DNA of 64,000 nucleotides, taken from NCBI GenBank assembly GCA_016201505.1, contig JACQCQ010000002.1, forward strand, positions 12,750 to 76,749, read 5' to 3'. This document shows, piece by piece, positions 1-14,389 of this stretch. This stretch comes from Candidatus Sungiibacteriota bacterium (GTDB lineage Bacteria; Patescibacteriota; Minisyncoccia; Sungbacterales; JACQCQ01). Every line of letters begins with the position of its first letter. Position 1 is the first letter of the stretch. The notes below the pieces were generated by a model. That model worked only from the letters and a program-made list of their open reading frames with translations. It was not told the DNA's origin and made no database searches. A program made the position numbers and the translations under genes.

Positions 1-129
1 CAGGTGGCGTACTCCGGCATCAAGCGGATTTACTTCCGCGATGGCTACTCGCGCACCGATGGCCAAGAAGTCTTGAGAGCCAAAGGAGTTGCCATCATCC
101 GCGTAGATATAGAAAGACCCCGGCGCTGA
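1..129 (+). CDS. 3' fragment of a cytidine/deoxycytidylate deaminase-family protein (5' end cut by window edge)
   Basis: Open frame from position 1 to TGA at 127-129. Translation ...QVAYSGIKRIYFRDGYSRTDGQEVLRAKGVAIIRVDI resembles C-termini of dCMP/CMP deaminases. Converges on the thyA-folA pair, consistent with a dTMP-synthesis cluster. Confidence 0.3.
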   Translation, partial: QVAYSGIKRIYFRDGYSRTDGQEVLRAKGVAIIRVDIERPRR

Positions 130-164
130 TCTCGGTTCATCCGAGTATCAGTGCCGGGGCTGTT

Positions 165-1115: not shown

Positions 1116-2044
1116 ACTGGCGTCTTGATCCTCCTTCGTCCCAGTTGAGCATGGTAGTCCTCGACATGGAAGTGATGTGGCCGGAATGCGAAGAGATCCT
1201 TCACATCTGGATCGAGTGTCACGGTTGGGAGCCGCTGCGGCTCAGTCTCGAGCATGTCGCGGACGTCAGCCCGCTGATCGTTCGGCCCTCCAGCGTAGAT
1301 GTGGGTGTCCGAGGTCTGAAAAACGAGTTCAGTCGCGCGATAGCCGAAGACCTGCGCGAGCATCATAGTGAGAGCCGCGTACTGGATCAGGTTGAAGACA
1401 AGACCAACGGGTGCGTCGGCGCTTCGTTGCCAGTGTAGCAGTGAGAGCTCTCCGTCTTTGGCATCGACGAAGATGTGAACAAGTCCATGACATGGAACAA
1501 CAACGACCTTCTGCTCTTTCCCTTTGCCGCGGCCGATGTATTGCGGGATGAATGGAGTCACGATGTGCGTCCGCAGGTGTGGCAACTCCGCCATTTGCTC
1601 GAGCACGTGTTTCCACTGATCGAATGGCGCGCCGTACATAGTAGGGAACGCTCTCCATGCAGCCCCATACGAGCCAGGTCCGAGGTCACCCGTTTCGAGT
1701 CCGCGCTTCTTGCACTTTTCCTCTGTAACCCAAGGCGCCCACCAGCCACAGCCGAAATTTTTCATCTCGTCGAGGGTGCGCGCCCCATTGAGAAACGCAC
1801 AGAGTTCGGCGATAGCCATTTCGAATTGAGACTTGCCGATTTTTCCCGGGTCAAGAAGGTCCCGTTCCGTGATCACCGGGAATCCATTGGAGAAATCAAA
1901 GCGCATCTCATTGCCGATGATGCGCAGTGCTCCCTCTCCCATTTGGGTTTCGGTCACGAACTTGCCGGACTCGATGATCTTTTGAATCAGGTTTCGGTAC
2001 TGTCGATCGGGCTCGCGATCACCGTAGGACACGTATCTGACCAT
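1112..2044 (-). CDS. thyA: Thymidylate synthase (ThyA type, 310 aa with insertions)
   Basis: Aligns block by block with E. coli ThyA: GNEMRFDFSNGFPVIT, GDLGPGSYGAAWRAFP, the catalytic PCH in VVPCHGLVHIFV, QRSADAPVGLVFNLIQYA and SDTHIY. Confidence 0.9.
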   Translation of the reverse strand: MVRYVSYGDREPDRQYRNLIQKIIESGKFVTETQMGEGALRIIGNEMRFDFSNGFPVITERDLLDPGKIGKSQFEMAIAELCAFLNGARTLDEMKNFGCGWWAPWVTEEKCKKRGLETGDLGPGSYGAAWRAFPTMYGAPFDQWKHVLEQMAELPHLRTHIVTPFIPQYIGRGKGKEQKVVVVPCHGLVHIFVDAKDGELSLLHWQRSADAPVGLVFNLIQYAALTMMLAQVFGYRATELVFQTSDTHIYAGGPNDQRADVRDMLETEPQRLPTVTLDPDVKDLFAFRPHHFHVEDYHAQLGRRRIKTPV

Positions 2045-2207
2045 TCTGTTTTCCCCTTATTCTGTTGGTAGTGAACTAAAACTGTGGTGGCATCGTATCA
2101 ACCGTTGCAGGATGCGTCAATTCGTATATTTTTGCTACAATGCTTACATATTTATTGTATGGAATACGAACCGGTGATTGGGATTGTCCCGATTTGTCAA
2201 TTTTGAA

Positions 2208-2489
2208 ATGCCTTACGTTTATATACTAATTTCTAAGAAAGACAGAAGATATTACGTTGGGTCTACAACTGACTTAGATCTAAGATTAAAAATGCATAAT
2301 TCTGGTACAGTGACCTCAACTCGATTTTATAGACCCTGGCAGCTTTTTTATTCTGAACAATTTGATACATTGGGCGAAGCAGTCAGTCGAGAAAGGAAAA
2401 TTAAATCTTGGAAAAAACGAACCGCCATTGAACGATTAGTAAATGGCATTTCAAAATTTGAAACAAATCGAGGATCCTCGACCGATTAA
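2208..2489 (+). CDS. Small GIY-YIG nuclease-family protein (UPF0213/COG2827-like), copy 1
   Basis: MPYVYILISKKDRRYYVGSTTDLDLRLKMHNSG...SRERKIKSWKK matches the GIY-YIG (YVYIL...YVG.T.DL..RL..HN.G) pattern. ATG at 2208 lies inside a terminal inverted repeat. Confidence 0.75.
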   Translation: MPYVYILISKKDRRYYVGSTTDLDLRLKMHNSGTVTSTRFYRPWQLFYSEQFDTLGEAVSRERKIKSWKKRTAIERLVNGISKFETNRGSSTD

Positions 2490-2498
2490 AATCGGTCG
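2479..2498 (+). terminator. 8-bp stem hairpin (CGACCGAT taaa ATCGGTCG) across the GIY-YIG stop, just upstream of gatB
   Basis: Perfect inverted repeat seen directly. No clear T-tract, so the function is uncertain. Confidence 0.3.
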
Positions 2499-2516
2499 GG
2501 AAAGTACACACCGAGT

Positions 2517-4025
2517 ATGGATTATGAAGCTGTTATAGGTATAGAGTGTCACGTCGAACTCAAAACGCGGACGAAGATGTTCTGCGACTCTTTAAATGAT
2601 CCCGATGAGAAGCATCCGAATGTGAACGTCTGTCCGATCTGCCTGGGGCATCCCGGCACATTGCCGACGATCAATAAAGCCGCGGTTGAGAAAGTTATTC
2701 TCGTTGGGCTCGCCCTGCATGCCGAAATTCCTGAATACTCGCAGTTTGATCGCAAAAATTATTTTTATCCTGATTTGCCGAAGGGCTATCAGATTTCCCA
2801 GTATGAGCATCCCTTGGTCAAAGGCGGCTATCTTGAATTTAAATCGGCTGACGGCGCGGTGCGGCACATTCGCATCACGCGGGTTCATTTGGAAGAAGAC
2901 ACCGGACGGCTGATGCACCAGGGTAGTCCCTCGACAAGCTCGGGACGACCAACTTCGTTGGTCGATTTCAACCGTGCCGGGATACCCCTGATGGAACTTG
3001 TCACCGAGCCGGATGTGAGAAGCGCGGAAGAAGCGCGCAGATTCGGCGAAGAGCTGCAGCTTATTATTCGGTACACGGGCGCTTCCGATGCGGATATGGA
3101 AAAGGGGCAGATGCGGGTTGAAGCCAACGTCTCGATCAGGCCCAAAGGCTCAAAGGAACTCGGCACTAAAGTCGAATTAAAAAATATCAATTCATTTCGC
3201 TTTGTCGAAAAGGCGGTGCTCTATGAGATCGCGCGTCAGACAAAACTTTTAGAAGAAGGCGGCAAGGTGATTCAGGAGACGCGCGGCTGGGATTCCGTGA
3301 GGGAAGTGACATTTTCACAGCGTATAAAAGAGGGCGCGACGGACTATCGCTACTTTCCCGAGCCCGATTTGCCGCCGCTTCTCGTTGATCAGAAGTGGCT
3401 CGCATCCATCCGTGCCAAATTAACTGAACTGCCCTGGCAGAAGCGGGTTCGGTTTGCCAGCGAATATGGACTGGATGATGCAACCAGCGAAGTTTTTATT
3501 CGCGAACCGAAATTAGCCGAGTTTTTTGAGGAGGTGGTTTCTGAACTAGAGGAATGGATCGCTTCGATGGGGGACAGAGTCATTAAATCAAAGGCCATAA
3601 AACTTGCCTCCAACTATATTACGAGCGACCTGCAGAAATTGCGGAACGAAACTGGCGCTCTCGTCGACGAGATGAACATTACCGCCGAGAATTTCGCGGA
3701 ACTCATGGCGCTGGTCTACGAAAATAAAATTTCATCGGCGGCGGCCAAACAAGTCTTGGGTGAAATGTTTAAAACCGGCGGCGACCCAGCGCAGATTATC
3801 GAGACCAAGAATTTAACTCAGGAAAGCGGCGAGTCGGCACTCCAGAATACAGTTCTCGAATTGATTGATGCGCATAAAGATATTGCCGAGCAAGTAAGAA
3901 GCGGCAAAAATCCGAACGCGATCCAGGCGCTGATTGGCGCCGGCATGAAAAAGACCCAAGGCAAAGCCAACCCGGCGGTGCTGCGGAGACTGTTTGAAGA
4001 GAATTTGAATTTGAAAAGAATTTGA
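2517..4025 (+). CDS. gatB: Asp/Glu-tRNA(Asn/Gln) amidotransferase subunit B
   Basis: MDYEAVIGIECHVELKTRTKMFC... is the canonical GatB N-terminus. Full-length 502-aa ORF. Confidence 0.95.
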   Translation: MDYEAVIGIECHVELKTRTKMFCDSLNDPDEKHPNVNVCPICLGHPGTLPTINKAAVEKVILVGLALHAEIPEYSQFDRKNYFYPDLPKGYQISQYEHPLVKGGYLEFKSADGAVRHIRITRVHLEEDTGRLMHQGSPSTSSGRPTSLVDFNRAGIPLMELVTEPDVRSAEEARRFGEELQLIIRYTGASDADMEKGQMRVEANVSIRPKGSKELGTKVELKNINSFRFVEKAVLYEIARQTKLLEEGGKVIQETRGWDSVREVTFSQRIKEGATDYRYFPEPDLPPLLVDQKWLASIRAKLTELPWQKRVRFASEYGLDDATSEVFIREPKLAEFFEEVVSELEEWIASMGDRVIKSKAIKLASNYITSDLQKLRNETGALVDEMNITAENFAELMALVYENKISSAAAKQVLGEMFKTGGDPAQIIETKNLTQESGESALQNTVLELIDAHKDIAEQVRSGKNPNAIQALIGAGMKKTQGKANPAVLRRLFEENLNLKRI

Positions 4026-4045
4026 AACAGAAGAAGGTTTGTCCG

Positions 4046-4087
4046 CATCTACTCTATCGTACGCTATAGCGTACGATAGAGTAGATG
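4046..4087. terminator. 19-bp perfect palindrome (CATCTACTCTATCGTACGC tata GCGTACGATAGAGTAGATG) 20 nt after the gatB stop
   Basis: Seen directly. No T-tract follows, so it could be a terminator, an RNA processing site or a protein-binding site. Confidence 0.35.
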
Positions 4088-4161
4088 GACGCACAGAGAA
4101 CGCCGGCGGAATGAGCGAAATGATTTAAAGAAAATTTGAAAAATGGTCAGAATTTTTTAAA

Positions 4162-4205
4162 GCGAATGTAATTTAGTGGCAGAATTCTTGCTTCCCAAGC
4201 CCCGT
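4162..4205 (+). repeat. Degenerate partial copy of the tRNA-Gly 5' half (D-arm and anticodon arm)
   Basis: gtaatttAGTGGCAGaattcTTGCTTCCCAAGC compared with tRNA-Gly gtagtatAGTGGCAGtacatTAGCTTCCCAAGC. The anticodon stem is disrupted and there is no T-arm. Confidence 0.5.
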
Positions 4206-4229
4206 ACCGTAATCTAAAACGCGCTTTGC

Positions 4230-4300
4230 GCGAGAGTAGTATAGTGGCAGTACATTAGCTTCCCAAGCTAATAGCAGGGGTTCGATTCCCCTTTCTCGCA
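4230..4300 (+). tRNA. tRNA-Gly (anticodon CCC)
   Basis: Manual fold: acceptor GCGAGAG/TTCTCGC with a G.U pair, D-arm, anticodon stem TTAGC/GCTAA with loop TTCCCAA (U33, anticodon CCC, A37), T-arm AGGGG-TTCGATT-CCCCT, discriminator A. No encoded CCA. Confidence 0.7.
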
Positions 4301-4318
4301 TTTAATTTTGTAGATTTT

Positions 4319-4414
4319 GGTCACGGGGCAAGCCAGGAGCCTGGGTTCGATTCCCGCCTTCGCATTGGTGTGAGGGCAAGCCATAGGCGCGGTTTCGATT
4401 ACCGCTGGCCGCAC
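4319..4414 (+). repeat. Two tandem tRNA 3'-half-like units (variable region + T-arm + acceptor 3' strand, each ending CGCA)
   Basis: Unit A is ...GGGCAAGCCAGGAGCCTGGGTTCGATTCCCGCCTTCGCA. Unit B is ...GGGCAAGCCATAGGCGCGGTTTCGATTACCGCTGGCCGCA and has a perfect T-arm GCGGT-TTCGATT-ACCGC. No matching 5' halves were found. Confidence 0.5.
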
Positions 4415-4465
4415 TGTTGATAGTTATGTCGTTTTTAAAAGATCTTTTATTTATAATTAATATCA

Positions 4466-4888
4466 ATGCTCACTTCACTCGAACGAGAAGCGCGCAGAAA
4501 CGAGAATTACTTTGTTGACCTCTTGCGCGTGGGACTCGGGCTTACGTTTTTCTGGTTCGGCGGCTTAAAATTTTTAGGTTATAACCCCGTCTATCAAATT
4601 GTCCACGCAACCTATCCGCTGCTTGCCACCACGAACGGCAATCTCATTTTGGGGATGCTGGAAACCTTAATCGGCGTGGGGCTTCTGGCCAATGTCTATC
4701 GCGCGACAACGCACGTGGCGCTCGTGCTTCATTTATCGAGTACATTTCTAACATTTTTTATTGCCCCCTCGATTATGTTCTCGCCGCATTTTACGATTTT
4801 GACACTGGCCGGCGAATTTATTTTCAAGAATGTCATTCTGGTTACGGCCGGGCTCGTTGTCTTTGGCTATTACGAACGGAGGGATTAA
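4466..4888 (+). CDS. Small integral membrane protein (about 4 TM, DoxX-like), hypothetical
   Basis: 140-aa ORF with hydrophobic segments. A strong terminator follows. Confidence 0.45.
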   Translation: MLTSLEREARRNENYFVDLLRVGLGLTFFWFGGLKFLGYNPVYQIVHATYPLLATTNGNLILGMLETLIGVGLLANVYRATTHVALVLHLSSTFLTFFIAPSIMFSPHFTILTLAGEFIFKNVILVTAGLVVFGYYERRD

Positions 4889-4905
4889 TTAAAACCTGAG
4901 GAATC

Positions 4906-4940
4906 AAACGCGCCCTTTACGAAGGGCGCGTTTTCATATA
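4906..4940 (+). terminator. Rho-independent terminator (AAACGCGCCCTT tacg AAGGGCGCGTTT + T-tract)
   Basis: 12-bp GC-rich stem followed by TTTTCATAT. Confidence 0.6.
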
Positions 4941-4979
4941 TTTCTGCCTTAGGTCTTCCCACACAAGAGGAGGCAAGAG

Positions 4980-6131
4980 ATGGTTTGGGTGACGATCCTC
5001 ATCGTGGTTTTCGCACTCTTCTCCACTGCATCTGCTGAGCCGCAAGAGGTTCACGCACTCTATCTTCCCGGCAAGTTCCTCTGTAGTCAGGTCGTCGTAG
5101 CGGACGTGAAGTCGCATGTCGAATCGGGCGCGGCTAATGCCGTGGTGATCGATCTCCGCGACAACGGAACTTTTTTCAACCACTGTATGAGTGAGGTTAC
5201 GGGGTGGTTGAAAGATCACAATGTCTATCTCATTGGACGCATCGTGGTCGGGCAGGACTCAATCATCGCTGATGCTCGCCGCGACATGGCGGTTCATGTA
5301 GCCGATCAACAGATCGCGCTCGAGAGAGTTTTGCAGAGTATCGATCGCATGGTTGAGCGAACACCCGAAGTAAAGAAGGCGGCTCTTCTTAAAACAAAGC
5401 TCGAAGCTCTTGACCGCTGGTACGGCGATGGCCGCAAAAAACCACTCTGGTTTTCCGGCGCGCTGGAACGGCATCGCTACTGGCTCGATCCCGCCTCACC
5501 GGATCTCGCGCGTCTTACCTCTGGAGTTGCCGAATGGGCTTCAACCCTCGGATTTGCCGAGATCAACTTGGACTACATTCGCTTCCCGACAGACGGGGAT
5601 ATGCAGAACATGCGCTATCCCTTCTGGAACGGTGAGCAGTCGAAGTACGAGGTGATAGGACGTTTCGCTTCTTCGGTTGTCGAAGACATCAAGCGGCGAG
5701 TTCCGGGGATGAAGGTCTCGGCTGATATCTTCGGGATCGTCTGCGTAAATGGAGCAGAGTCCTCAACAGGCCAGCGGGTGAAAGATTTTACGGTCTTTGA
5801 CTACCTTGCCTGCATGGGATATGCCTCGCACTTTCGTTGCGGCGACTTCGGGTTTTCCGATCCTAACCAGAAGCCCTATGAAGTGACGAAGACCGTTGCT
5901 TTGGGTCTTGCGCGGCATCTCGCCGGCGTGACAAAAAAGCCCTTTATACGTCCCTGGATCGAGGGTTTTACCATTCCCTCGATCTACCAATGCAGCACCT
6001 GGCGGCCGCCGAGTGCCAAGGAACGCTTCCGCCAGCAAATTCGGGCCCTCGCAGAGCACGGCATCAAAAGCTGGATGATCTGGAACACGGCGGATGAACC
6101 AAAGCCTCTCTATGAGAAGATATTTCGGTAG
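4980..6131 (+). CDS. Secreted putative glycoside-hydrolase-like TIM-barrel protein (DUF4015/GHL-like), paralog 1
   Basis: N-terminal signal or TM segment. Shares the motif INLDYIRFPTDGD (IQYDYVRFPSDGD in the paralog) and overall colinearity with the next gene. The family assignment is from memory of DUF4015-type proteins. Confidence 0.4.
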   Translation: MVWVTILIVVFALFSTASAEPQEVHALYLPGKFLCSQVVVADVKSHVESGAANAVVIDLRDNGTFFNHCMSEVTGWLKDHNVYLIGRIVVGQDSIIADARRDMAVHVADQQIALERVLQSIDRMVERTPEVKKAALLKTKLEALDRWYGDGRKKPLWFSGALERHRYWLDPASPDLARLTSGVAEWASTLGFAEINLDYIRFPTDGDMQNMRYPFWNGEQSKYEVIGRFASSVVEDIKRRVPGMKVSADIFGIVCVNGAESSTGQRVKDFTVFDYLACMGYASHFRCGDFGFSDPNQKPYEVTKTVALGLARHLAGVTKKPFIRPWIEGFTIPSIYQCSTWRPPSAKERFRQQIRALAEHGIKSWMIWNTADEPKPLYEKIFR

Positions 6132-6139
6132 CTCCCGCA

Positions 6140-6195
6140 AGCCCATCCCGATTCCGCCATAGGCAAAATCGGGATGGGCTCTTTCTTATTTCTTC
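6140..6195 (+). terminator. Hairpin (14-bp stem AGCCCATCCCGATT / AATCGGGATGGGCT) followed by a T-rich tract
   Basis: Seen directly after the stop of the 4980..6131 gene. Confidence 0.5.
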
Positions 6196-6222
6196 CCATT
6201 TTCTAGGCTATGATGGAAGCCG

Positions 6223-7473
6223 ATGCAGAAAAAGATTGCCATTTCGATTCTAATGCTCGCCGTTCTCTTCGGCGGCTATTTAATTTTTGAACTGGTCCGT
6301 CCGCCGGCAGAGCTGATTTTGCAGGGCGGGCCTAAAAAAAATCAAAATCAACCAAGCTCACAAAAAACTCTAAAGGAACGGATCCGGGACGCCGCCATGC
6401 GCTCGCAGAATGTGAAGGGCGTCTATGTGACAGCCGCGGTGGCGAACGATCAGGGCCGTCCGGCGACGAATCTGCGCAACTCAATTCTCGAAATTCTTAG
6501 CACGACAGAAATTAACGCCGTGGTGATTGACGTAAAAGAAACTCCCGGCGGTCAAATCACCGATCATTTAAAACCCTTTGTGGATGAATTAAAATCGCGC
6601 GGCGTCTGGACCATCGCGCGCATGGCGACGTTTCGCGATAATTCGCAAGTCACGGCGCATCCCGATTATTATGTAAAACGGCCTGATGGCGGCATCTGGC
6701 GCGACAATAAAGGCAACGCCTGGCTGGATCCGATGAGCGAAGGGACACGCGCCTACATGCTCTCATTCGCTAAAAATGTGGCCGACATCGGGTTTGATGA
6801 GATTCAATATGATTATGTTCGTTTTCCTTCTGATGGCGACACCCGAGACATCGTTTACCCCGCGTATCAGGCGAGTAGTATGCCGAAGTACCTGGCCATC
6901 AAAGATTATTTGTCTTTCATACATGACAATCTAAAAGCCTATAAACCTGAATTGATTCTCTCCGCTGATTTATTTGGCTATGTCGCCACCGAAACAGAAG
7001 ATCTAGGCATCGGCCAGCGGCTGATTGATGTGGCTTCGAATGTTGATTTTATTTCTTTGATGCTCTATCCCAGTCATTTTTATGCTGGCTTTGATGTTCC
7101 GGCTGATTCATTGAGAAATTTAGCTGCCGCCTCGTTGCCCTACCGGGGCGCCAGTACGACCTCGCTCGTTTCAGCCAATCCGTATGCCGTTGTCTATCAC
7201 TCATTGCTGGTGGCGCATGATGCCCTGCTCGGCCGCGTGCCGCATGGCACGACGACGCCGAACCCCGCTATTGTAAATGAAAATCCAGCCGTAAAATTCC
7301 GTCCCTGGCTGCAGGATTTTGATCTCGGCGTTGATACTTCAAGAGGGATTTATTATGATGCCAAAGCCGTGAGAGCCCAGATTGACGCCGCCGAGCATGC
7401 CGGCGCCTCCGGCTGGCTTTTGTGGAGCCCGACGAATACCTACACTGAAGCCGCGTTAAGGCCGAAGTCGTGA
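6223..7473 (+). CDS. Secreted putative glycoside-hydrolase-like TIM-barrel protein (DUF4015/GHL-like), paralog 2
   Basis: N-terminal TM or signal (MQKKIAISILMLAVLFGGYLIF). Motifs YDYVRFPSDGD and ...GWLLWSPTNTY are shared with the paralog. Confidence 0.4.
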   Translation: MQKKIAISILMLAVLFGGYLIFELVRPPAELILQGGPKKNQNQPSSQKTLKERIRDAAMRSQNVKGVYVTAAVANDQGRPATNLRNSILEILSTTEINAVVIDVKETPGGQITDHLKPFVDELKSRGVWTIARMATFRDNSQVTAHPDYYVKRPDGGIWRDNKGNAWLDPMSEGTRAYMLSFAKNVADIGFDEIQYDYVRFPSDGDTRDIVYPAYQASSMPKYLAIKDYLSFIHDNLKAYKPELILSADLFGYVATETEDLGIGQRLIDVASNVDFISLMLYPSHFYAGFDVPADSLRNLAAASLPYRGASTTSLVSANPYAVVYHSLLVAHDALLGRVPHGTTTPNPAIVNENPAVKFRPWLQDFDLGVDTSRGIYYDAKAVRAQIDAAEHAGASGWLLWSPTNTYTEAALRPKS

Positions 7474-7490
7474 TGGAGAGGAGATCATAA

Positions 7491-7898
7491 ATGGCCGACG
7501 CATGGAGCGAAGCGAAGGTAATGGCGACACGGTGTCAGGCGCTCCTCCTGCTCGCGCTGGATCCGCGTGAGCGGGGATGGCAGAAGGTCGGGAGCGACTT
7601 TCTGGTGCGGGTGATTGCAGGCCGTGGCGACATCTGGTTCCGGCACATCCCCGCTGATCGAGAGTCGAGGGCTCACTTCCTCGAGAATACCTTCTCCCAG
7701 CTCTGCCTCCTGCGTCATGAGGAGCACCAGGAAGTTCTCACCGCCGAGTCGGTAAGCGTATGGCGCTGCTATTATTGCCGGCCGCCGGTGATCACTGTTC
7801 TCAAAAAAGCAGGCGAGGGCGAGCGGCTTTTGGGCGAGACGGGTTTAAAAGAATTCGCTCGGGAGTGTGAGTCTCGGTTTGCTCCGGCAGGCCGCTAG
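7491..7898 (+). CDS. Hypothetical protein encoded in a GC-rich islet
   Basis: 135-aa ORF. Its strand is supported by a downstream terminator on the + strand. Local GC is visibly higher than in neighbouring genes. An alternative antisense ORF at 7485..7727 is considered less likely. Confidence 0.4.
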   Translation: MADAWSEAKVMATRCQALLLLALDPRERGWQKVGSDFLVRVIAGRGDIWFRHIPADRESRAHFLENTFSQLCLLRHEEHQEVLTAESVSVWRCYYCRPPVITVLKKAGEGERLLGETGLKEFARECESRFAPAGR

Positions 7899-7924
7899 CG
7901 CGGCCTGCCGGAGGCACATTTTTC
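7884..7924 (+). terminator. Rho-independent terminator (CCGGCAGGCCGC tagc GCGGCCTGCCGG + TTTTT)
   Basis: 12-bp perfect stem overlapping the stop codon, with a T-tract at 7918-7924. Confidence 0.55.
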
Positions 7925-8178
7925 GGATATAATGTTTTCGTCATTGTAAGCTGGAGTAATCGGAGCCTCACTTCTCGTCTCTGGCTTCGAGATCCTAAAA
8001 ATGAATGCTACATTCATTTTGTCATCCTCGCGCCGGAGTAACTCAGCCTGCCCCGTTACCGCCACCTTAGCTCCCTCCTTAGCTCAAATTTATTTTGAGC
8101 TTCAGAAGGGCGAGATTACCCCAAACGAGGGCAGGCTTGCACTTCCGCAGCTTCGATGAGAGTCGAAGCAGAGAGGTT

Positions 8179-8251
8179 GCCACCTTAGCTCAGCTGGTAG
8201 AGCAGCACTTTCGTAAAGTGAAGGTCCCGAGTTCGAATCTCGGAGGTGGCT
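8179..8251 (+). tRNA. tRNA-Thr (anticodon CGT)
   Basis: Manual fold: acceptor GCCACCT/AGGTGGC, D-arm GCTC-AGCTGGTA-GAGC, anticodon loop TTCGTAA (U33, CGT, A37), T-arm CCGAG-TTCGAAT-CTCGG, discriminator T. Confidence 0.75.
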
Positions 8252-8268
8252 CTGATAGAATAAGATGA

Positions 8269-8337
8269 ATGGCTGACATTCCCGCACGTCTTAAAAAAAC
8301 AAAAACTAATATCCGCGTGCTCGCGGAACGTCTTTGA
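8269..8337 (+). other. Relic upstream copy of the RF2 leader ORF0 (22 codons MADIPARLKKTKTNIRVLAERL ending CTT TGA C)
   Basis: ATG at 8269 is in frame through CTT(8332-8334) TGA(8335-8337). It is homologous in length and sequence to the functional ORF0 at 8636 (MNDIQQRLNIVRDKVRVLAERL) and shares its last 28 nt exactly. Confidence 0.5.
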
Positions 8338-8339
8338 CC

Positions 8340-8630
8340 CCGCCCCTTGAGATTTATTATGTATGATATGTATGTGCTCGGTATGAGTAATGGACAATTT
8401 TATGCCGGCTTTGCATCAGACTTAAAAAAGCGAGTTGCAGAACATAAACATGGTAAAGTTTCTACAACAAAAAAATATCTCCCAGTTTCGCTGATATTTA
8501 TGAATGCTATCTTTCCGAGCGAGATGCAAAACATAGAGAATATATGCTAAAGAAATTTGGCAGTACGTATTCTCACCTCAAGAAACGTATTAAAGATAGC
8601 ATTCAGAAATCTCAAGGGCGGGGTTTGACC
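8340..8630 (+). mobile_element. GIY-YIG mini-element copy 2 with terminal inverted repeats and flanking TTTGACC repeats
   Basis: Left end TTTGACC|CCGCCCCTTGAG at 8333-8351, right end CTCAAGGGCGGGG|TTTGACC at 8611-8630. The inverted repeat has an 8-bp perfect core CCCTTGAG/CTCAAGGG extended to about 13 bp. It encloses the GIY-YIG ORF. The whole unit lies between two copies of the 28-bp prfB recoding segment (8312-8339 and 8679-8706). Confidence 0.6.
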
Positions 8631-8633
8631 TAA
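8359..8633 (+). pseudogene. GIY-YIG nuclease-family gene, copy 2, interrupted by a +1 frameshift in a T-run near 8497-8500
   Basis: N-terminal part MYDMYVLGMSNGQFYAGFASDLKKRVAEHKHGK...KKYLPVSLI matches the GIY-YIG pattern. The conserved C-terminal part (YECYLSERDAKHREYMLKKFGSTYSHLKKRIKDSIQKSQG) continues in the -1 frame to TAA at 8631-8633, consistent with a single T inserted in ATATTTATG. Confidence 0.6.
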
Positions 8634-8635
8634 AT

Positions 8636-9749
8636 ATGAATGATATACAACAAAGGTTGAATATTGTACGAGATAAGGTCCGCGTGCTCGCGGAACGTCT
8701 TTGACCTGCGCCAACTTCGCGAGGACATTTTAAAATACGAGTCTGAATTATCAGCGTCGCATATTTGGCAGAATGATCCCGAACGGGCGAAAGAGTTGGG
8801 ATCGCAAATAGCCAATAGCAAAAAAGAAATCGCGCGCTGGGAACATATCACGGGCGAGGCCGCGACGCTTGAGGAACTCTGGGCCATCGCCGGAGCCAGT
8901 CCCGATTCCGGGTTTCTCCGCGAATTTGATGAGCGGCTCTTTATGCTTGAGCAGAGTCTCCGGGCAGTCGAAATTGAATATTTATTTAGCGGAAAATATG
9001 ATAAAGGCTCGGCGCTGGTTTCGATTTATTCCGGCGCCGGAGGCAAAGACGCCGAAGATTGGGCGGCGATGCTGGCGCGCATGTACGAGCGCTACGCTGA
9101 ACGCCTGGGCTGGAAGGTGATCCGCGTCCACGAACATAACGGCGAGTACCACGGCCCGTCGGGCTGGGGGATTAAAAACGTAACACTCGATATAAAAGGC
9201 GACTTTGCTTATGGCTATTTAAAACATGAGCGCGGCGTGCATCGGCTGGTGCGCATCTCGCCGTTTTCATCGCAGTCACTGCGGCACACCTCATTTGCGC
9301 TGGTTGAAGCCCTGCCCGAGATGATTGAGCCGGAAGAAATCGAAATCAAACCCGAAGAAATTACCTTTGATTTTTTCCGCGCGTCAGGTCCGGGCGGCCA
9401 AAATGTAAATAAACGTGAGACGGCGGTGCGCGTGATTCATAATCCGACCGGCATACAGGCAACGGCTCAAAGCGAACGGACGCAGGAACGAAATCGTGAG
9501 ACGGCCATGCAGCACTTGCGGGCCAAGTTGTACCAAAAAAAGTTAGCCGAGATCGAGGCCGAACGGCGCGGCATCCGCGGCGAGCAGGTATCGGTTGAAT
9601 GGGGTTCGCAAATTCGCTCGTATGTCCTGCATCCATACCGGCTCGTCAAAGACCATCGCACCAATTACGAAACCTCGGATGTTGAGGGGGTACTCGACGG
9701 TGATCTAGACGCGCTGGTTGAGGCTTCGATTCGAAGAGTAATGCCGTAG
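8636..9749 (+). CDS. prfB: Peptide chain release factor 2, expressed through a programmed +1 ribosomal frameshift
   Basis: ORF0 runs ATG 8636..CTT 8701 then TGA 8702-8704. The +1 frame (GAC at 8703) continues DLRQLREDIL...SPF...GGQ... to 9749. SPF and GGQ motifs identify RF2. Confidence 0.9.
8699..8705 (+). promoter_or_regulatory. RF2 programmed +1 frameshift (recoding) site CTT TGA C
   Basis: Classic autoregulatory shifty site: CTT in frame 0 is followed by the in-frame TGA, and TTT GAC is read in the +1 frame. Confidence 0.8.
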
Positions 9750-9811
9750 TTTGGTTCCCCGCGGCAGGCTTGGTATAATGCTACCAGTGCAGGATACTGC
9801 AGGGTCCGCTT

Positions 9812-10492
9812 ATGATTTTTCTTGATAATGTCTCAAAAATTTATTCTGAAACAGCAACTGCCTTAAAAGGAATTACCCTGCGCATTAAGCCTAAAGAGTT
9901 TGTTTCGCTGGTCGGCCCTTCCGGCTCCGGCAAGACGACCCTGTTTAAGCTTTTAATTCGCGAGGAGGATCCCTCGGAGGGGAAGATTTTTTTTGAGGAT
10001 GTCGATATTACGGGTATGGCGGCGAAAGACTTGCCCTATTTGCGCCGCCGCGTCGGCCGCGTATTCCAGGACTATCGGCTGCTGCCCATGAAAAATACTT
10101 TTGAAAATGTGGCCTTTGCCATGGAGGCGGCAGGCAAAACGAAAGAAGAGATCGAGCATGACGTGCCGCAAGTCTTGGAACTTGTCGGCCTCGCGGACAA
10201 GTCGAATAATTTTCCGCATGAATTGTCGGGCGGCGAGTCGCAACGGGTTGCCATTGCGCGGGCTTTAGTCAATCGTCCCGATGTGATTCTGGCCGATGAG
10301 CCGACGGGAAATTTGGATCCCACCAATACCTGGGATATCATCAGGCTGCTTGAAAAAATTAATGAACTTGGAACCACAGTCATGCTCGCCACGCATGATA
10401 AGGAAGTCATCGATTCATTGGGCCGCCGCGTCGTGGCGCTTGAGAAGGGCGAGGTCATTCGTGACGAGAAGAAAGGCAAATACGAGGAATAA
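9812..10492 (+). CDS. ftsE: Cell-division ABC transporter ATP-binding protein
   Basis: Walker A GPSGSGKTT, ABC signature LSGGESQRVAIARAL, Walker B ILADEPTGNLD. Immediately followed by an FtsX-like permease. Confidence 0.9.
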   Translation: MIFLDNVSKIYSETATALKGITLRIKPKEFVSLVGPSGSGKTTLFKLLIREEDPSEGKIFFEDVDITGMAAKDLPYLRRRVGRVFQDYRLLPMKNTFENVAFAMEAAGKTKEEIEHDVPQVLELVGLADKSNNFPHELSGGESQRVAIARALVNRPDVILADEPTGNLDPTNTWDIIRLLEKINELGTTVMLATHDKEVIDSLGRRVVALEKGEVIRDEKKGKYEE

Positions 10493-10500
10493 TTATTTGC

Positions 10501-11412
10501 ATGAAATTATCCGAACTTATTCGCAGAATCAGTCTGTCAGCCGCCTTGTCCTTTTGGCGGAACGGGCTTCTTTCGACGGCGACAGTCTTGGTCATGGTGC
10601 TGGCACTTTTTGTCATCGGCGGCCTTCTGCTTTCCTCCGTTTTGATGAATTCAGTGCTGGATAGTCTGCAAAATAAAATTGATGTCTCGGTGTATTTCCT
10701 GCCAAATACGCCCGAGGATTTAATTTTGGGACTGAAATCTGAATTTCTTAAAATTCCGAATGTAAAAAATATTTTGTATGTCTCTCAAGCCGAAGCCTTA
10801 GAAAACTTTAAGACCAAAAATCAGGCTAACCCGACCATCGCTGAATCTTTAAAGGAACTGGATACGAATCCTCTTGAAGGTTCCTTAAATATTACCGCTC
10901 TCGATCCAACAAAATTTTCTGACATCTCCTCAATCATCGAAGCGCGGAAGGAGCAATCGATTGATAAGATCAATTTTCATGAAAATCAGTCAGCCATTGC
11001 GAGATTAACTGAAATTATGAATGGTTCGCGAAGCGCCGGTGCGGTGCTCGCCGTCGTTCTCATAATTGTCGCAGTGACGGTTACATATAATACGGTGCGC
11101 CTCGCCATCTTTACGGCCAAAGACGAAATTTCCATCATGCGGCTCGTTGGTGCGACCGCCTGGTATGTCCGATTACCCTTTCTATTGGAAGGCGTCATTG
11201 ACGGGGTGATTTCAGCTATTATCACGACATTCGTTTTCCTGCCGATTGTTTCGATTCTCTCGCCTAAAATCAGTTCGTTTACCGGCGGCATAGATTTATG
11301 GGCTTATTTTGGCTCGCATTTTTTTGAATTCTTTTTCATTCTCTTATTTATCGGCGTAGGGCTGGGGATTATCTCGGCTTTTCTGGCCACCCGCAAATAC
11401 TTGAAAGTTTAG
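10501..11412 (+). CDS. ftsX: Cell-division ABC transporter permease
   Basis: 303 aa with an N-terminal TM segment, periplasmic domain and three C-terminal TM segments. Position directly after ftsE. Confidence 0.85.
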   Translation: MKLSELIRRISLSAALSFWRNGLLSTATVLVMVLALFVIGGLLLSSVLMNSVLDSLQNKIDVSVYFLPNTPEDLILGLKSEFLKIPNVKNILYVSQAEALENFKTKNQANPTIAESLKELDTNPLEGSLNITALDPTKFSDISSIIEARKEQSIDKINFHENQSAIARLTEIMNGSRSAGAVLAVVLIIVAVTVTYNTVRLAIFTAKDEISIMRLVGATAWYVRLPFLLEGVIDGVISAIITTFVFLPIVSILSPKISSFTGGIDLWAYFGSHFFEFFFILLFIGVGLGIISAFLATRKYLKV

Positions 11413-11527
11413 ACATCTCGTCTATACTACGGTCAATTTCGTTCATACCAGTTCGGTTCTTTTATAGCGAACTCAATACTCGTTGTTTCCATCTTTAACA
11501 TGCGGAGAAGGTCCGCAAGAGGTCATC

Positions 11528-11872
11528 ATGGCGATACGAGTTAGGACGATCGAGTTCTACGGCACAACGGATGCAACTTTCACGGAGGAAGACTGCGAAG
11601 CATCGCTCTTTCGTCCCCACTACGCGCGCATCGAGGGTGGGGACGACGACCCGAAAGCAGTACTCGAGAAAGAGTTGAGATCTCGCCGGGAGATCGAGGA
11701 GGCCATTCTCGAGCCCCAGCGCCGGGCGAGGAAGAGGGCGGGTCAAGATATCAGCCGGGATCTGAATCTGGTTTACACCGCGCTGATCCCGATCTGCCAG
11801 GAGCGGTGGAAGGTGACGGAGGGCGAGTCGCTGGACGTCAGGTACCGCATTCGCATCTCGCGACCGCTCTAG
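11528..11872 (+). CDS. Hypothetical charged protein encoded in a GC-rich islet
   Basis: ATG preceded by a GAGG-type RBS. The + strand is supported by a downstream terminator. An antisense ORF at 11495..11887 is rejected. Local GC is above that of the flanking genes. Confidence 0.4.
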   Translation: MAIRVRTIEFYGTTDATFTEEDCEASLFRPHYARIEGGDDDPKAVLEKELRSRREIEEAILEPQRRARKRAGQDISRDLNLVYTALIPICQERWKVTEGESLDVRYRIRISRPL

Positions 11873-11888
11873 AGTGCGTGCGCCCACG

Positions 11889-11925
11889 GGCGCGGCCGTC
11901 CATCGGCCGCGCCCCGTTTTATTAT
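11889..11925 (+). terminator. Rho-independent terminator (GGCGCGGCCG tcca TCGGCCGCGCC + TTTTATTATTT)
   Basis: GC-rich stem followed by a T-tract. Confidence 0.6.
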
Positions 11926-12238
11926 TTGATCCCGTTAGAAAATCCCGTAACTTAAAAAAAGTTGTGGCTTGAATAATTTTAAATCTGGCGCTGGATAATG
12001 GCTCGTGTTAATTTTCTATCGGGATTGAAATATCACTTAAAAATCGGCATTATAGACAAAGTTTTCTTATTATCAGGCAGACCGTAGGTCTACCATAAGA
12101 AAACCTTAAGCGAAGAATCTCTTTTCAAAACACTCAATTTGCGAGCGACCATGGTGTCATAGACGAGCGAGCAAATTGGTGAGAGAGTTTTATCGGTGGG
12201 AAAACGAACTATTTTGAAAAGACGGTTCGAGCAGACAA

Positions 12239-12309
12239 TGCGGGATCGGCTAACGGCAGGCCACGAGACTCTGAATCTCGGTATCTTGGTTCGAATCCAA
12301 GTCCCGCAG
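12239..12309 (+). tRNA. tRNA-Gln (anticodon CTG)
   Basis: Manual fold: acceptor TGCGGGA/TCCCGCA, D-arm GGCT-AACGGCA-GGCC, anticodon stem CGAGA/TCTCG with loop CTCTGAA (U33, CTG, A37), T-arm CTTGG-TTCGAAT-CCAAG, discriminator G. Confidence 0.75.
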
Positions 12310-12712
12310 CCCTTCGACAAGCTCAGGGCCTTTGCCATAATAGGCTCATGAGTTGGAATGTTTACATTCTTCTTTGCGATCAGAAAACTTTTTATGTTGG
12401 TCTAACAGATAATATTGAAAGACGAGTGAACCAGCATAATCGGAAAGAGTCATTTTTCACTAAAAAGTTTTCTGATGTAAGGCTGGTGTATCAAGAAGAA
12501 TATAGAAACAGAGCCACGGCTGAAAAAAGAGAACTGCAGCTCAAGAAGTGGAGTATCGCAAAGAAGAAAGCTCTCATTATTGGAGATAAGGAATTGCTAA
12601 AGAAATTAAGCAAAAGCCGTGAGGTTGACGATATGCTGGGGTAGTAAAGATAATGGTGAGCAGTTCGACAAGCTCACTGTTGAACGTGTCGAATCCATCC
12701 AAGTCCCGCAGC
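12291..12712 (+). mobile_element. GIY-YIG mini-element copy 3 inserted at the 3' end of tRNA-Gln, bounded by direct repeats of the tRNA 3' end
   Basis: tRNA 3' segment TCGAATCCAAGTCCCGCAGC (12291-12310) recurs as TCGAATCCATCCAAGTCCCGCAGC (12689-12712) after the GIY-YIG gene. Sub-terminal TTCGACAAGCTCA is present near both ends (12313-12325 and 12664-12676). Confidence 0.55.
12348..12644 (+). CDS. Small GIY-YIG nuclease-family protein, copy 3 (intact)
   Basis: MSWNVYILLCDQKTFYVGLTDNIERRVNQHN...RELQLKKWSIAKKKALI matches the GIY-YIG pattern and the C-terminal KxW region of this family. Confidence 0.8.
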   Translation: MSWNVYILLCDQKTFYVGLTDNIERRVNQHNRKESFFTKKFSDVRLVYQEEYRNRATAEKRELQLKKWSIAKKKALIIGDKELLKKLSKSREVDDMLG

Positions 12713-12897
12713 TATCCTTCATTAAAGCTACGGAATAGCAGGCCATCTTTCGCCAAGGTCCACTACGCCTCCAGAGCTGCAAGCAACGGAGCGTTACAGA
12801 ATGGCATGCCCCCAGTTGAGGAAATTTGGAGTCAGGCTTTAGGGGCTAAAGCCTGAATGCGGTTGCTATTTAGCCCTGAATGCGATAAAAACAAGTC

Positions 12898-13158
12898 ATG
12901 GCTAAAAAACTATTTGTAGGAGGGCTGTCGTACGACACAACCGACAGCTCGTTGCGGGAAGCCTTCTCGAAGGCCGGAACGGTTGAGTCGGCAGCAGTCA
13001 TTACCGATAAAATGTCCGGTCGGTCCAAGGGATTTGGTTTTGTCGAAATGTCATCGGAAGATGAAGCGGCAAACGCCATTTCAACGCTAAACGGCAAAAA
13101 TCTGGACGGGCGTGCGATTACGGTAAACGAGGCGAGGCCGCAGGAACCAAGACGCTAA
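12898..13158 (+). CDS. RRM-type RNA-binding protein
   Basis: RNP2 LFVGGL and RNP1 KGFGFVEM motifs. 86 aa. Confidence 0.85.
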   Translation: MAKKLFVGGLSYDTTDSSLREAFSKAGTVESAAVITDKMSGRSKGFGFVEMSSEDEAANAISTLNGKNLDGRAITVNEARPQEPRR

Positions 13159-13174
13159 GGCATAGCAAAATGAA

Positions 13175-13210
13175 AACCACCCGACGTGACGTCGGGGGGT
13201 TTTCATTTTG
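13175..13210 (+). terminator. Rho-independent terminator (AAAACCACCCGACG tga CGTCGGGGGGTTTT + TCATTTTG)
   Basis: Long GC stem followed by a T-tract. Confidence 0.6.
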
Positions 13211-13280
13211 CGCACCCATTCATCTTTTGAGGAGAAGGCCGTCGTTCTTTTGCGAAAGATCAGCGCTTCGGGTATGGTAG

Positions 13281-14389
13281 AAAAAATTAGAGACAGTTGT
13301 ATGAGAAAAACTCTGCCCGTCAGAACGTGGATTGAACTCGACAAAAAGGCCCTGCTCGCCAATTTTAATTTTTTTGCCTCACGGGCACGGGGCATGGAAA
13401 TTATGGCGGTGATTAAATCAAACGCCTACGGACATGGCCTGGTTACGGTCGCTCGATGCATCTCGGGAAAATCAAAAAAAATCTGGCTCGGTGTTGATTC
13501 GATTACCGAAGCTTTGGCATTGCGCCGTGAAAAAATAAAAAATCCGATTTTGGTTTTAGGCTATACCCTGCCGAATCGCATGAAAGAGGCGCGCCAAAAT
13601 AACGTTTCGATAACCATTTCTAATTTTGAAAGCCTGAAGGCGCTCGAAACCTTAAAAGCCAAGCCGGCCTTTCATATTAAAATCGAAACCGGCATGAATC
13701 GACTCGGATTTAAAAAGGCAGACTGGCCAAAATTAATTTCCCGGCTGCAAAAATCAAACCTGACGCCCGATGGGATCTATTCGCATCTGGCCGAGGCCAC
13801 GGATAGAAAATATTCAAAAAAACAAATCGAGTGTTTTCGCGAGGCGATTTTAAGTTTTAAAAACTCCGGCATCAGGCCAAAATTCGCGCACATCTTAAAA
13901 ACTGAAGGCATACTTAATTTCCCCAGTGTCGGGAGCATGGTGCGTATTGGCATCGGTCTTTATGGCTACATTCCCTCGCGGCTTAAAAATCTAAAGCCGG
14001 TGATGACCTGGAAAACGATGGTGGCGGAGGTAAAAAATGTGAGACAGGGTGAGCTCATCGGTTATGGCTTGACGGAAAAGTTTCGCCGCGATTCCCGCGT
14101 TGCGGTACTGCCCATCGGCTACTGGCATGGGTATGATCGGGGGTTGTCATCTATTGGCGAAGTCTTAATTCACGGTCAACGCGTAAAAGTTATGGGACGC
14201 GTCTCGATGGACATGACCGTGGTGGATATAACGAATATTCAAAACGTTAAAGTGGGCGATGAAGCGGTACTTCTCGGCCGGCAGGGGAATGATTATATTT
14301 CGGGTGATGAAATTGCCGACAAGATCGGAACAATCGTCTACGAAGTCATTACGCGCATTAATCCGCTGATTTATAAGGTTGTCGTATAA
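13281..14389 (+). CDS. alr: Alanine racemase
   Basis: PLP-site motif AVIKSNAYGHG. Length and domain order are typical. ATG 13281 is chosen over the upstream alternative start. Confidence 0.85.

Follow-up and report, generated by a model that had tools for sequence, protein, structure and literature searches.

Three short genes for proteins of the GIY-YIG nuclease domain lie among translation genes near one end of the 64,000-nt stretch analysed here (contig JACQCQ010000002.1 of Candidatus Sungiibacteriota bacterium; "the window" below), and the question they raise is whether such small stand-alone proteins are resident enzymes of the host or the only genes of something that moves. We suggest, as a reading that we hold to be probable though by no means certain, that these genes, called g1, g2 and g3, are members of a large family of minimal selfish elements of the homing type that restore the target they interrupt. 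Each element would consist of one Slx1-like GIY-YIG gene of ~90 aa with inverted-repeat or hairpin ends, placed in a tRNA gene or in the first codons of an essential gene; because a spare copy of the interrupted part lies beside the element, the host gene still works. Support comes from the anatomy of the three loci, a foreign replacement of the gatB start, empty and occupied alleles among relatives, an association with tRNA genes and their duplications that crosses phyla, and independent acquisition of the three copies.

Three GIY-YIG genes and the repeats around them

The first 13 kb of the window contain thyA, gatB, tRNA-Gly, two DUF4015 genes, tRNA-Thr, prfB, ftsE, ftsX and tRNA-Gln, and the nearest GatB and RF2 proteins, at 70-77% identity, come from Candidatus Sungbacteria and other Parcubacteria. 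All three GIY-YIG open reading frames (ORFs) are on the plus strand: g1 (2208-2489; PF01541, E = 5e-18; GC 35%) is an intact UPF0213/Slx1-like gene of 93 aa, g2 (8359-8633) is split into two ORF pieces by an apparent -1 frameshift near 8497, within a run of T where an assembly error is conceivable, and g3 (12348-12644) is intact, with 98 aa and perfect internal inverted repeats of 16 and 14 nt. They pass the curated PF01541 cut-off of 22.6 bits with 65.6, 39.1 and 56.2 bits, respectively, and once the frameshift of g2 is corrected, as the comparison of domains and residues requires, Y5, Y16, G18, R26, H30, R61 and E62 are invariant in all three. A first-pass annotation of the window had taken them for three paralogues; the genes do stand where it placed them, but g2 is frameshifted, and at a pairwise identity of only ~31% the copies are not recent paralogues. 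Their base composition (35-37% GC) differs from that of the window (48.7%). The UPF0213-like identity proposed at the same time is borne out by the best PDB matches, which are the UPF0213 proteins BH0048 (1zg2, E = 7e-7) and EF2693 (1ywl, E = 3e-6), and the minimal single-domain architecture of 91-98 aa fits the UPF0213 or bacterial Slx1-like class.

A profile built from the three copies found no fourth GIY-YIG gene in the remaining 51 kb of the window, and no NCBIfam model scored above its cut-off; TIGR01453 reached 20.7 bits against a cut-off of 56, through the N-terminal motif only. The elements contain no transposase of a known class (DDE, HUH, serine or tyrosine recombinase), the GIY-YIG domain being their sole ORF, and an Rfam scan of positions 1-14,000 at E <= 1 returned only tRNA families. 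A group I intron of the I-TevI type was rejected, given the lack of a ribozyme in that scan, the lack of a C-terminal DNA-binding domain and the length of 91-98 aa; the scan also led us to drop the idea that the conserved ends GTCCCGA...TCGGGAC belong to an intron or ribozyme.

The inverted repeats around all three ORFs beat 60 of 60 shuffles, and by repeat search, shuffling and folding every window copy carries terminal inverted repeats (TIRs) of the kind known from insertion sequences. Each ORF is in addition flanked by two copies of the end of its neighbouring gene, namely the gatB 5' end, the prfB leader and the tRNA-Gln 3' end. The repeats listed in the first-pass annotation (TIRs at g1; TIRs, TTTGACC and a duplicated leader at prfB for g2; a duplicated tRNA-Gln 3' end at g3) were all found again, and to these we add the duplication of the gatB 5' end at g1, which it had missed, and the identification of the tRNA beside g2 as tRNA-Thr.

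Insertions at gatB and prfB

Upstream of gatB, positions 2159-2186 (plus strand), recognised by repeat search and from the N-termini of relatives, hold a displaced gatB 5' end of ATG, codons 2-9 and one further nt (MEYEPVIGI), which enters the element and meets a stop at 2204-2206. This 28-nt segment has a counterpart at 2517-2544 with 75% identity, seven of the eight mismatches falling at codon position 3. The counterpart belongs to the start that now serves the gene (2502-2544, plus strand), which is made up of a 15-nt spacer, codons 1-9 and one nt and continues in frame with the host gatB to 4025. MEYEPVIGI is the exact N-terminus of the closest GatB relatives (P0002, P0007, P0009, P0014 and others), whereas the functional gene begins with MDYEAVIGI, a sequence atypical for the clade. 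The GC content at third codon positions (GC3) is 0.11 in the functional first nine codons, a value as low as that being found in just 0.4% of the nine-codon windows of gatB, while it is 0.56 in the displaced fragment, 0.58 in the remaining gatB and 0.26 in the nuclease ORF. From the native-like displaced copy and the GC3 of the functional start we conclude that the native start was displaced and that a foreign, element-like one took its place; the functional gatB start is foreign and came with the element. gatB thus shows a foreign tract with a native remnant beside it, as in homing and in the fungal mORFs discussed below; among gatB, prfB and tRNA-Gln, the assignment of the foreign copy was made for gatB alone.

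The g1 element proper (2187-2501) is made of two hairpins. Hairpin A (2187-2474, plus strand) encloses the nuclease ORF, its left arm, starting with TCCCGATTTG (2187-2212), pairing with a right arm that ends in CAAATCGAGGA (2445-2474); a 14-nt perfect inverted repeat (2199-2212/2445-2458), reached by none of 60 shuffles, extends to a closing stem of ~26 bp that is present in the minimum-free-energy fold (z = -3.9). Hairpin B (2475-2501, plus strand), delimited by motif comparison, reads TCCTCGA CCGATT aa AATCGG TCGGGA and contains the stop codon of g1. Its motif ATCGAGGATCCTCGA is kept in seven copies from five genomes, in which the interior stems differ yet remain complementary. We considered that the outer motifs might form one closing stem and rejected this, since the copy in L003 covaries inside hairpin B (TGCTCGA/TCGGCA), which makes A and B separate hairpins (L and P numbers denote our loci and proteins from the databases). 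The 5' end TTGTCCCGATTT of the element is common to L001 and L004, and homologous ORFs share non-coding ends, with TCCCGATTT directly after TTG on the left and ATCGAGGATCCTCGA, a hairpin and TCGGGA on the right. Such g1-type ends recur in metagenome-assembled genomes (MAGs) labelled Patescibacteria, Saccharibacteria, Azambacteria and Methylomirabilis; the non-coding ends are hence conserved across genomes of different phyla.

Insertions of the g1 type always follow a G, mostly TTG, in targets that are unrelated (gatB, tRNA-Ala, the protein gene of L001), and no target-site duplication accompanies them in the window or in L004. In the relatives L024-L031 (67-71% GatB identity) the gatB site is empty: no GIY-YIG gene lies upstream, and the gene directly before gatB is dcd or a 217-aa gene annotated, where it is annotated at all, as thymidylate kinase. 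At 3900-4300 of L001, a small Cys-rich ORF (..CGFHYADKEWAEKCEVWCREHKSC) is interrupted close to its 3' end, after ..AAAAGTTG, by a g1-type element that seems to lack a replacement copy, so that insertions are not always restoring. A further observation past the gatB stop, by ~20 nt and upstream of the tRNA-Gly cluster, is a loopless 42-nt perfect palindrome at 4046-4087 with arms of 21 + 21 nt (CATCTACTCTATCGTACGCTA / TAGCGTACGATAGAGTAGATG).

The second element lies at the recoding site of prfB. The upstream copy of the leader ORF (8269-8337, plus strand; MADIPARLKKTKTNIRVLAERL, then stop) has 22 codons, ends in CTT TGA and is conserved with the matching copy in L039. TTTGACC follows as a left direct repeat (8333-8339, plus strand; right copy at 8624-8630), and between the two repeats the g2 element (8340-8623, plus strand) is enclosed by the inverted repeats CCGCCCCTTGAGATTT (8340-8355) and AAATCTCAAGGGCGGGG (8607-8623), supported by shuffling and by the fold (z = -4.1). 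The g2 reading frame crosses the right TIR and TTTGACC before it ends at TAA; the deposited MAG holds the gene as a 63-aa piece (P0127), and intact homologues are 66-72% identical. The functional prfB (8636-9749, plus strand) has its own leader (8636-8704; MNDIQQRLNIVRDKVRVLAERL, then stop), likewise of 22 codons and ending in CTT TGA, which feeds the +1 shift at CTT TGA C into the RF2 frame (8703-9749; P0128, 100% identity). The two leaders share an identical 28-nt direct repeat (8312-8339/8679-8706) and are otherwise strongly diverged.

Occupied and empty forms of this site are both found among relatives. L039, a short metagenome contig, carries tRNA-Thr, a leader, a TIR, an intact 101-aa nuclease (71% identical), a second TIR, a second leader and RF2, while L121, L122 and L123 have a single leader and no nuclease, the last with the same synteny as the window (DUF4015 - tRNA-Thr - prfB - ftsE - ftsX). 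RF2 identities are 76.4% between the window and L039, 76.0% between the window and L122, and 75.7% between L039 and L122; being nearly equal, they place the occupied and empty prfB alleles among equally related lineages. Presence/absence polymorphism, as known from homing elements, is thus seen among relatives at both gatB and prfB. The TIRs of g2 recur in L032, L038 and L039. Homologues of g2 also occupy unrelated sites in L038 and in L032 (19 contigs), the latter with an adjacent ORF-less copy, and g2-type elements are bounded on both sides by TTGA(C) in the window, in L032 (twice) and in L038, or more fully by TTGAC(C) in the last two.

Some details of these loci deserve separate mention. 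The upstream leaders of the window (8269-8337) and of L039 (~58-126), which seem redundant, are both intact; with 14 of 22 aa identical and many synonymous differences they are the better conserved pair, the functional leaders agreeing at 11 of 22; translational coupling to the nuclease start, which lies 19-21 nt downstream, or gene conversion is a possible cause of the conservation of the upstream leader. In L038 (~633-685) and L032 (~2900-2960), the right end of the g2-type element together with its flank forms a perfect outward sigma-70 promoter, TTGACA-N16/17-TATAAT. Two of the loci with an empty prfB site hold other structures nearby: L123 has a solo TCCCGAT-TGCG-ATCGGGA hairpin between prfB and ftsE (2664-2681), and L122 (793-1070) has tRNA-Thr at 793-867, a copy of its 3' end ~180 nt further on (TTCGATCCTCGCCTCCGGCTCA), then an 85-aa ORF, then prfB.

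tRNA genes as targets in the window and beyond

The third element abuts a functional tRNA-Gln(CTG) (12239-12311, plus strand, from the tRNA search). By repeat search, shuffles and folding, the g3 element (12312-12676, plus strand) consists of a left end CTTCGACAAGCTCAGGGCC (12312-12330), the ORF and a degenerate right end GGTGAGCAGTTCGACAAGCTC (12655-12676), and the repeat search places after it, at 12689-12712 (plus strand), a decayed duplicate of the tRNA-Gln 3' end that reaches from the T loop to the acceptor and contains a 3-nt insertion. The left end CTTCGACAAGCTCAGG is nearly identical to that of an element after tRNA-Asn in L012, from a MAG labelled Bdellovibrionales, in which the right end is a clear TIR and the protein is 65% identical to g3. 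The tRNA-end repeat of this type measures 12 nt in L012 and 24 nt, imperfect, in the window.

The first-pass annotation had pointed out decayed half-copies around tRNA-Gly, and these are present as a 5' half at 4162-4200 and 3' halves at 4329-4363 and 4377-4411, all on the plus strand and recovered by repeat search. We conclude that a replacement tRNA enclosed by a hairpin has split an old tRNA-Gly(CCC) here, in the anticodon region: the 128-nt cassette between the halves (4201-4328, plus strand) has no ORF and carries a new tRNA-Gly(CCC) at 4230-4300, around which a stem closes that is long but imperfect (z = -3.2 for stem and cloverleaf together), the second 3' half-copy is older, and joining 4162-4200 to 4334-4375 gives a tRNA-Gly(ccc) that ARAGORN accepts. 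The cleanest parallel is L004. There the cut in an old tRNA-Ala(TGC) falls between positions 35 and 36 of the anticodon, and a tRNA is again obtained when the halves are joined. The element there comprises a hairpin A with the nuclease ORF and a hairpin B with a complete new tRNA-Ala, with no target duplication, and the tRNA-Gly cassette shares the architecture of that hairpin B. Upstream of tRNA-Thr (8179-8252), repeat search and sequence comparison showed the 5' end of this tRNA in two further copies of 13 nt each (8061-8085), followed by the solo hairpin GCTTCGATGAGAGTCGAAGC at 8150-8169, all within 8061-8169 on the plus strand; these are probably traces of earlier insertions, and by eye the hairpin resembles g3-type ends (CTTCGAC...GTCGAAAG).

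The association with tRNA genes extends well beyond the window. Searches with protein patterns only yielded 103 loci, 23 from a scan of species-representative genomes and 80 from a metagenome scan, and in 66 of these the ORF has a tRNA or tmRNA gene no more than 300 nt away on its own strand, where chance would give ~1-2% from the density of tRNA genes. Upstream tRNAs typically end 8-12 nt ahead of the ORF start and downstream ones typically overlap its last 10-16 nt; at least 15 specificities are involved. A partial copy of the adjoining tRNA stands on the far side of the ORF in 50 of the 63 testable loci, compared with 0 of 63 on the control strand, so that the enrichment in flanking repeats and tRNA neighbours expected of such elements is observed. 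In many far-side copies the 17-nt anticodon or T arm is swapped for a 16-19-nt hairpin, TCCCGR...YCGGGA or GGCCGAC...GTCGGCC, and over the other 33 nt these copies match the functional tRNA fully. At a threshold of at least 60% protein identity, clusters mostly have one target tRNA, with switches between Val, Pro and Ala, between Arg and Pro, between tmRNA and Leu, between Asn and Gln, and between prfB and other sites.

Each window copy has its nearest kin in another genome (L040, L038, L012), with 59-72% identity as against 31% among the three; the protein comparison indicates that the three copies were acquired independently. The family as a whole comprises 7,483 clusters at 50% identity (E <= 1e-3), nearly all of 80-150 aa.

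Derivatives that lack an ORF occur in L003 and L032. L003 has two tandem GIY-YIG genes, between which ORF-less two-hairpin mini-copies are nested in a pseudo tRNA-Ala, and the proteins P0248 (214 aa) and P0249 (205 aa) each consist of two tandem GIY-YIG domains. L101 (1-640) and L098 (1740-1800) contain arrays of tRNA-Arg-like units that carry TCCCGATT-TCT-AATCGGGA in place of the anticodon arm; the hairpin loop in L101 keeps the TCT anticodon, and one copy is called as tRNA-Arg by ARAGORN. In L040, L045, L054, L056, L059-L061, L064, L075, L100, L106 and L111 the stop codon of the ORF lies 10-16 nt inside the downstream tRNA, so that RNase P processing of a co-transcript would remove it.

Proposed spread by homing and its alternatives

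The nearest precedent for these loci is found in fungal mitochondria. In the mORFs of atp6 in Allomyces macrogynus and of atp6, atp9, cox2 and nad3 in Glomus sp., a foreign copy of the gene's C-terminus has been inserted and the native C-terminus left downstream (PMC3630166). As here, a conserved gene contains a free-standing endonuclease ORF accompanied by a foreign version of the gene end, with the native remnant next to it; as at gatB, it is the native copy, not the inserted one, that agrees with close relatives (PMC3630166). Target restoration as a principle is therefore already known (PMC3630166), and of the claim, made at first pass, that the family is undescribed, what holds is that we found no such bacterial elements in the literature. 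The loci described here differ from mORFs in their bacterial chromosomal location, in the replacement of the 5' end in protein genes and in having tRNA genes as main targets. They also carry a ~90-aa Slx1-like domain without an additional DNA-binding domain, and their hairpin or TIR ends and arm-swapped tRNA-like copies have no counterpart there.

The Seg proteins, free-standing GIY-YIG homing endonucleases of T4-like phages (PMC2988022, PMC13096335), offer a second comparison; SegB is located in the tRNA gene cluster. Seg proteins are encoded, like the window copies, by free-standing GIY-YIG genes beside conserved genes, tRNA genes included, and spread by break-induced gene conversion of flanking DNA, a route shared with the one proposed below. 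They differ from our proteins in having ~200 aa or more with DNA-binding domains and in being phage-borne, and they are not known to duplicate the target. For the family described here only one match to a viral contig was found, and TIGR01453 scored far below its cut-off. IS200/IS605-type hairpin elements and miniature inverted-repeat transposable elements are likewise small, have hairpin ends, insert 3' of a short motif without target duplication and leave ORF-less derivatives; the elements described here have no HUH (TnpA) or TnpB gene, and GIY-YIG is their sole ORF.

Closer in phylogenetic terms are the rRNA genes of the Candidate Phyla Radiation, where GIY-YIG ORFs occur in non-intron intervening sequences that the authors judged to lie outside homing (PMC11270868). 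By description, those insertions share with ours the same bacterial radiation, a nature other than that of group I or II introns, and a position at the tops or bases of stem-loops in structural RNA genes, and they differ in occupying a tolerable rRNA site with no replacement copy described (PMC11270868). A GIY-YIG protein is also among the genes predicted to have been transferred from Patescibacteria to other bacteria (PMC12455944). Stand-alone UPF0213/Slx1-like proteins such as 1zg2 and 1ywl belong to the same family and have the same one-domain plan as the window copies; we came upon no account that places UPF0213 proteins in mobile elements or links them to tRNA genes, and earlier work regards the Slx1-like GIY-YIG proteins of prokaryotes as repair-type and vertically inherited (PMC1564403). 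Full-text searches, in a literature collection that lacks most subscription journals, found no description of small bacterial GIY-YIG elements that target tRNA genes or gene starts. We thus claim novelty provisionally, for a combination of unusual features: the minimal nuclease, the hairpin ends, the arm-swapped tRNA copies, the replacement of 5' ends and the use of the RF2 recoding site as a target.

Since the logic of the fungal mORFs is reproduced at gatB, a homing-like route would by analogy be favoured. We propose that the putative nuclease breaks an unoccupied target at a hairpin-prone site and that the break would be repaired by copying from an occupied allele. The two flanking copies of the target could act as homology arms, so that the element and its replacement segment would be copied in together; the displaced native piece would stay as a remnant and the element would later decay, for which the frameshift in g2, the ORF-less tRNA-Gly cassette and the solo hairpin would be examples within the window. 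Nuclease activity, cleavage site, repair route, the role of the hairpins and mobility itself are read from sequence, and we put them forward as a proposal. That these are selfish elements carrying a replacement for the piece they disrupt had been suggested at first pass, and it gains support from the native MEYEPVIGI and foreign MDYEAVIGI at gatB and from the empty and occupied alleles at prfB, from which mobility may be deduced. We also considered, as an idea only, integration of a circular ORF plus tRNA mimic by a single crossover of the Campbell type. This would cover the arrangements "tRNA - ORF - copy" and "copy - ORF - tRNA" and the tRNA-Lys pair L105/L088, and was set aside for its poor fit to L054 and L056.

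Several points weigh against our proposal. The 93-aa protein has no obvious DNA-binding domain to provide site specificity, and a functional copy of the target persists beside the element with no evident reason why it should escape being cut again; a simple single-crossover model, on its side, fails at some loci (L054). Between the window and L039, the upstream prfB leader has diverged less than would be expected. At many loci the functional tRNA and its far-side copy show 100% identity, so that duplication or gene conversion of host DNA fits as well as imported DNA does. Significant inverted repeats surround the ORF in only 6 of the 102 other loci, for which reason we rejected them as a hallmark of the family and regard its architecture as heterogeneous. 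Viral contigs (IMG/VR) gave only one locus, a weak one, and a phage origin was rejected on this ground. Lastly, the TIRs and short TTGA(C) direct repeats of g2-type elements at unrelated sites (L032, L038) look more like transposition than homing.

This last point leads to the explanation that we consider the most serious competitor, though an unlikely one, namely that these are true DNA transposons in which the GIY-YIG protein acts on its own inverted-repeat or hairpin ends in the manner of a transposase or excisionase. Insertion would take place at short motifs, g2-type elements using TTGAC, g1-type elements landing after TTG and g3-type elements after a tRNA 3' end in ..GCC, and the duplicated gene ends would be secondary, because only those insertions in essential genes that a duplication had rescued would survive. 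The TIRs at all three window copies agree with this, as do the TTGA(C) borders of each g2-type copy at an unrelated site, the tandem ORF-less copy included (L032, L038), the right flank TTTGACCT in the window, which matches the prfB target over 8 nt, the constant G, mostly TTG, before g1-type insertions in unrelated targets together with the lack of a replacement copy in L001, and the switching of targets inside close protein clusters. GIY-YIG proteins, however, are hydrolytic nucleases with no known strand-transfer chemistry (PMC1564403), g1-type elements have no target-site duplication in L004 or in the window, most family members have no TIRs, and a later duplication within the host would leave the foreign, element-like composition of the gatB replacement unexplained.

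It is improbable, in our view, that the proteins are resident housekeeping nucleases tied to tRNA genes, for instance co-transcribed with them and acting on tRNA or RNA metabolism or on conflicts between replication and transcription at these genes, with the copies as regulatory or processing modules. The great regularity of the far-side copies, with a hairpin of constant length (16-19 nt), the other 33 nt 100% identical and TCT kept in the loop in L101, would suit such a role, as would ORF stop codons inside downstream tRNAs and the prior view of Slx1-like proteins as vertically inherited repair enzymes, one of which is fused to a tRNA methyltransferase (PMC1564403). Yet many different tRNAs as well as tmRNA are involved, protein genes are interrupted (gatB, prfB, L001), tRNA genes are split and insertions nested, sites are empty in relatives, the GC content is low for the host, g2 is decaying, and each window copy is nearer to the copies in L040, L038 and L012 than to its neighbours in the window. 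Interrupted protein genes, empty sites, nesting, foreign composition and closer kin in other genomes than in the window fit poorly with a role confined to housekeeping at tRNA genes. Finally, that these are remnants of integrase-mediated islands or prophages in tRNA genes with GIY-YIG as the surviving cargo is very improbable, for although a complete tRNA with its 3' end repeated directly behind it is what marks a classical att site, the ~300-400 nt between the repeats hold a GIY-YIG ORF as their sole ORF, no integrase lies beside the elements in window positions 1-15 kb or in the flanks read of L001-L003 and L014, insertions in anticodon and D loops and in the 5' ends of gatB and prfB would go unexplained, and viral contigs gave only one match.

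On the reading that we favour, spread of target-restoring elements by a homing-like route, a very large family that is usually annotated as hypothetical or as repair nucleases would be largely selfish, and with ~300-400 bp and one 90-aa protein its members would be among the simplest bacterial elements known. We advance tentatively, and with less confidence than the reading of the window itself, the wider claim that stand-alone UPF0213/Slx1-like proteins are in large part the nucleases of phylum-spanning minimal mobile elements rather than repair enzymes, which would invade tRNA genes and now and then the opening codons of essential genes, cleave in a structure-guided manner at hairpin-forming sites, spare the host by supplying or duplicating the interrupted part and leave arm-swapped tRNA-like copies (TCCCGR...YCGGGA). 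Many tRNA half-copies, pseudo-tRNAs and tandem tRNA fragments, especially in Patescibacteria, would then be explained; the 5' ends of gatB and prfB would have been acquired horizontally, a point that phylogeny and annotation would have to take into account; and the RF2 recoding site would be an insertion target whose leader then becomes duplicated. Target recognition and self-protection of this kind would be new for a selfish element, and the small nuclease with its conserved hairpins could serve in studies of how structure or sequence guides cleavage at tRNA genes.

One neighbouring gene may also be recorded. On the minus strand at 165-1115, beside thyA, a 316-aa ORF has, judging from its translation, an N-terminal half like dihydrofolate reductase and a C-terminal end resembling a histidine triad (HFHFHII), an unusual, fusion-like arrangement.

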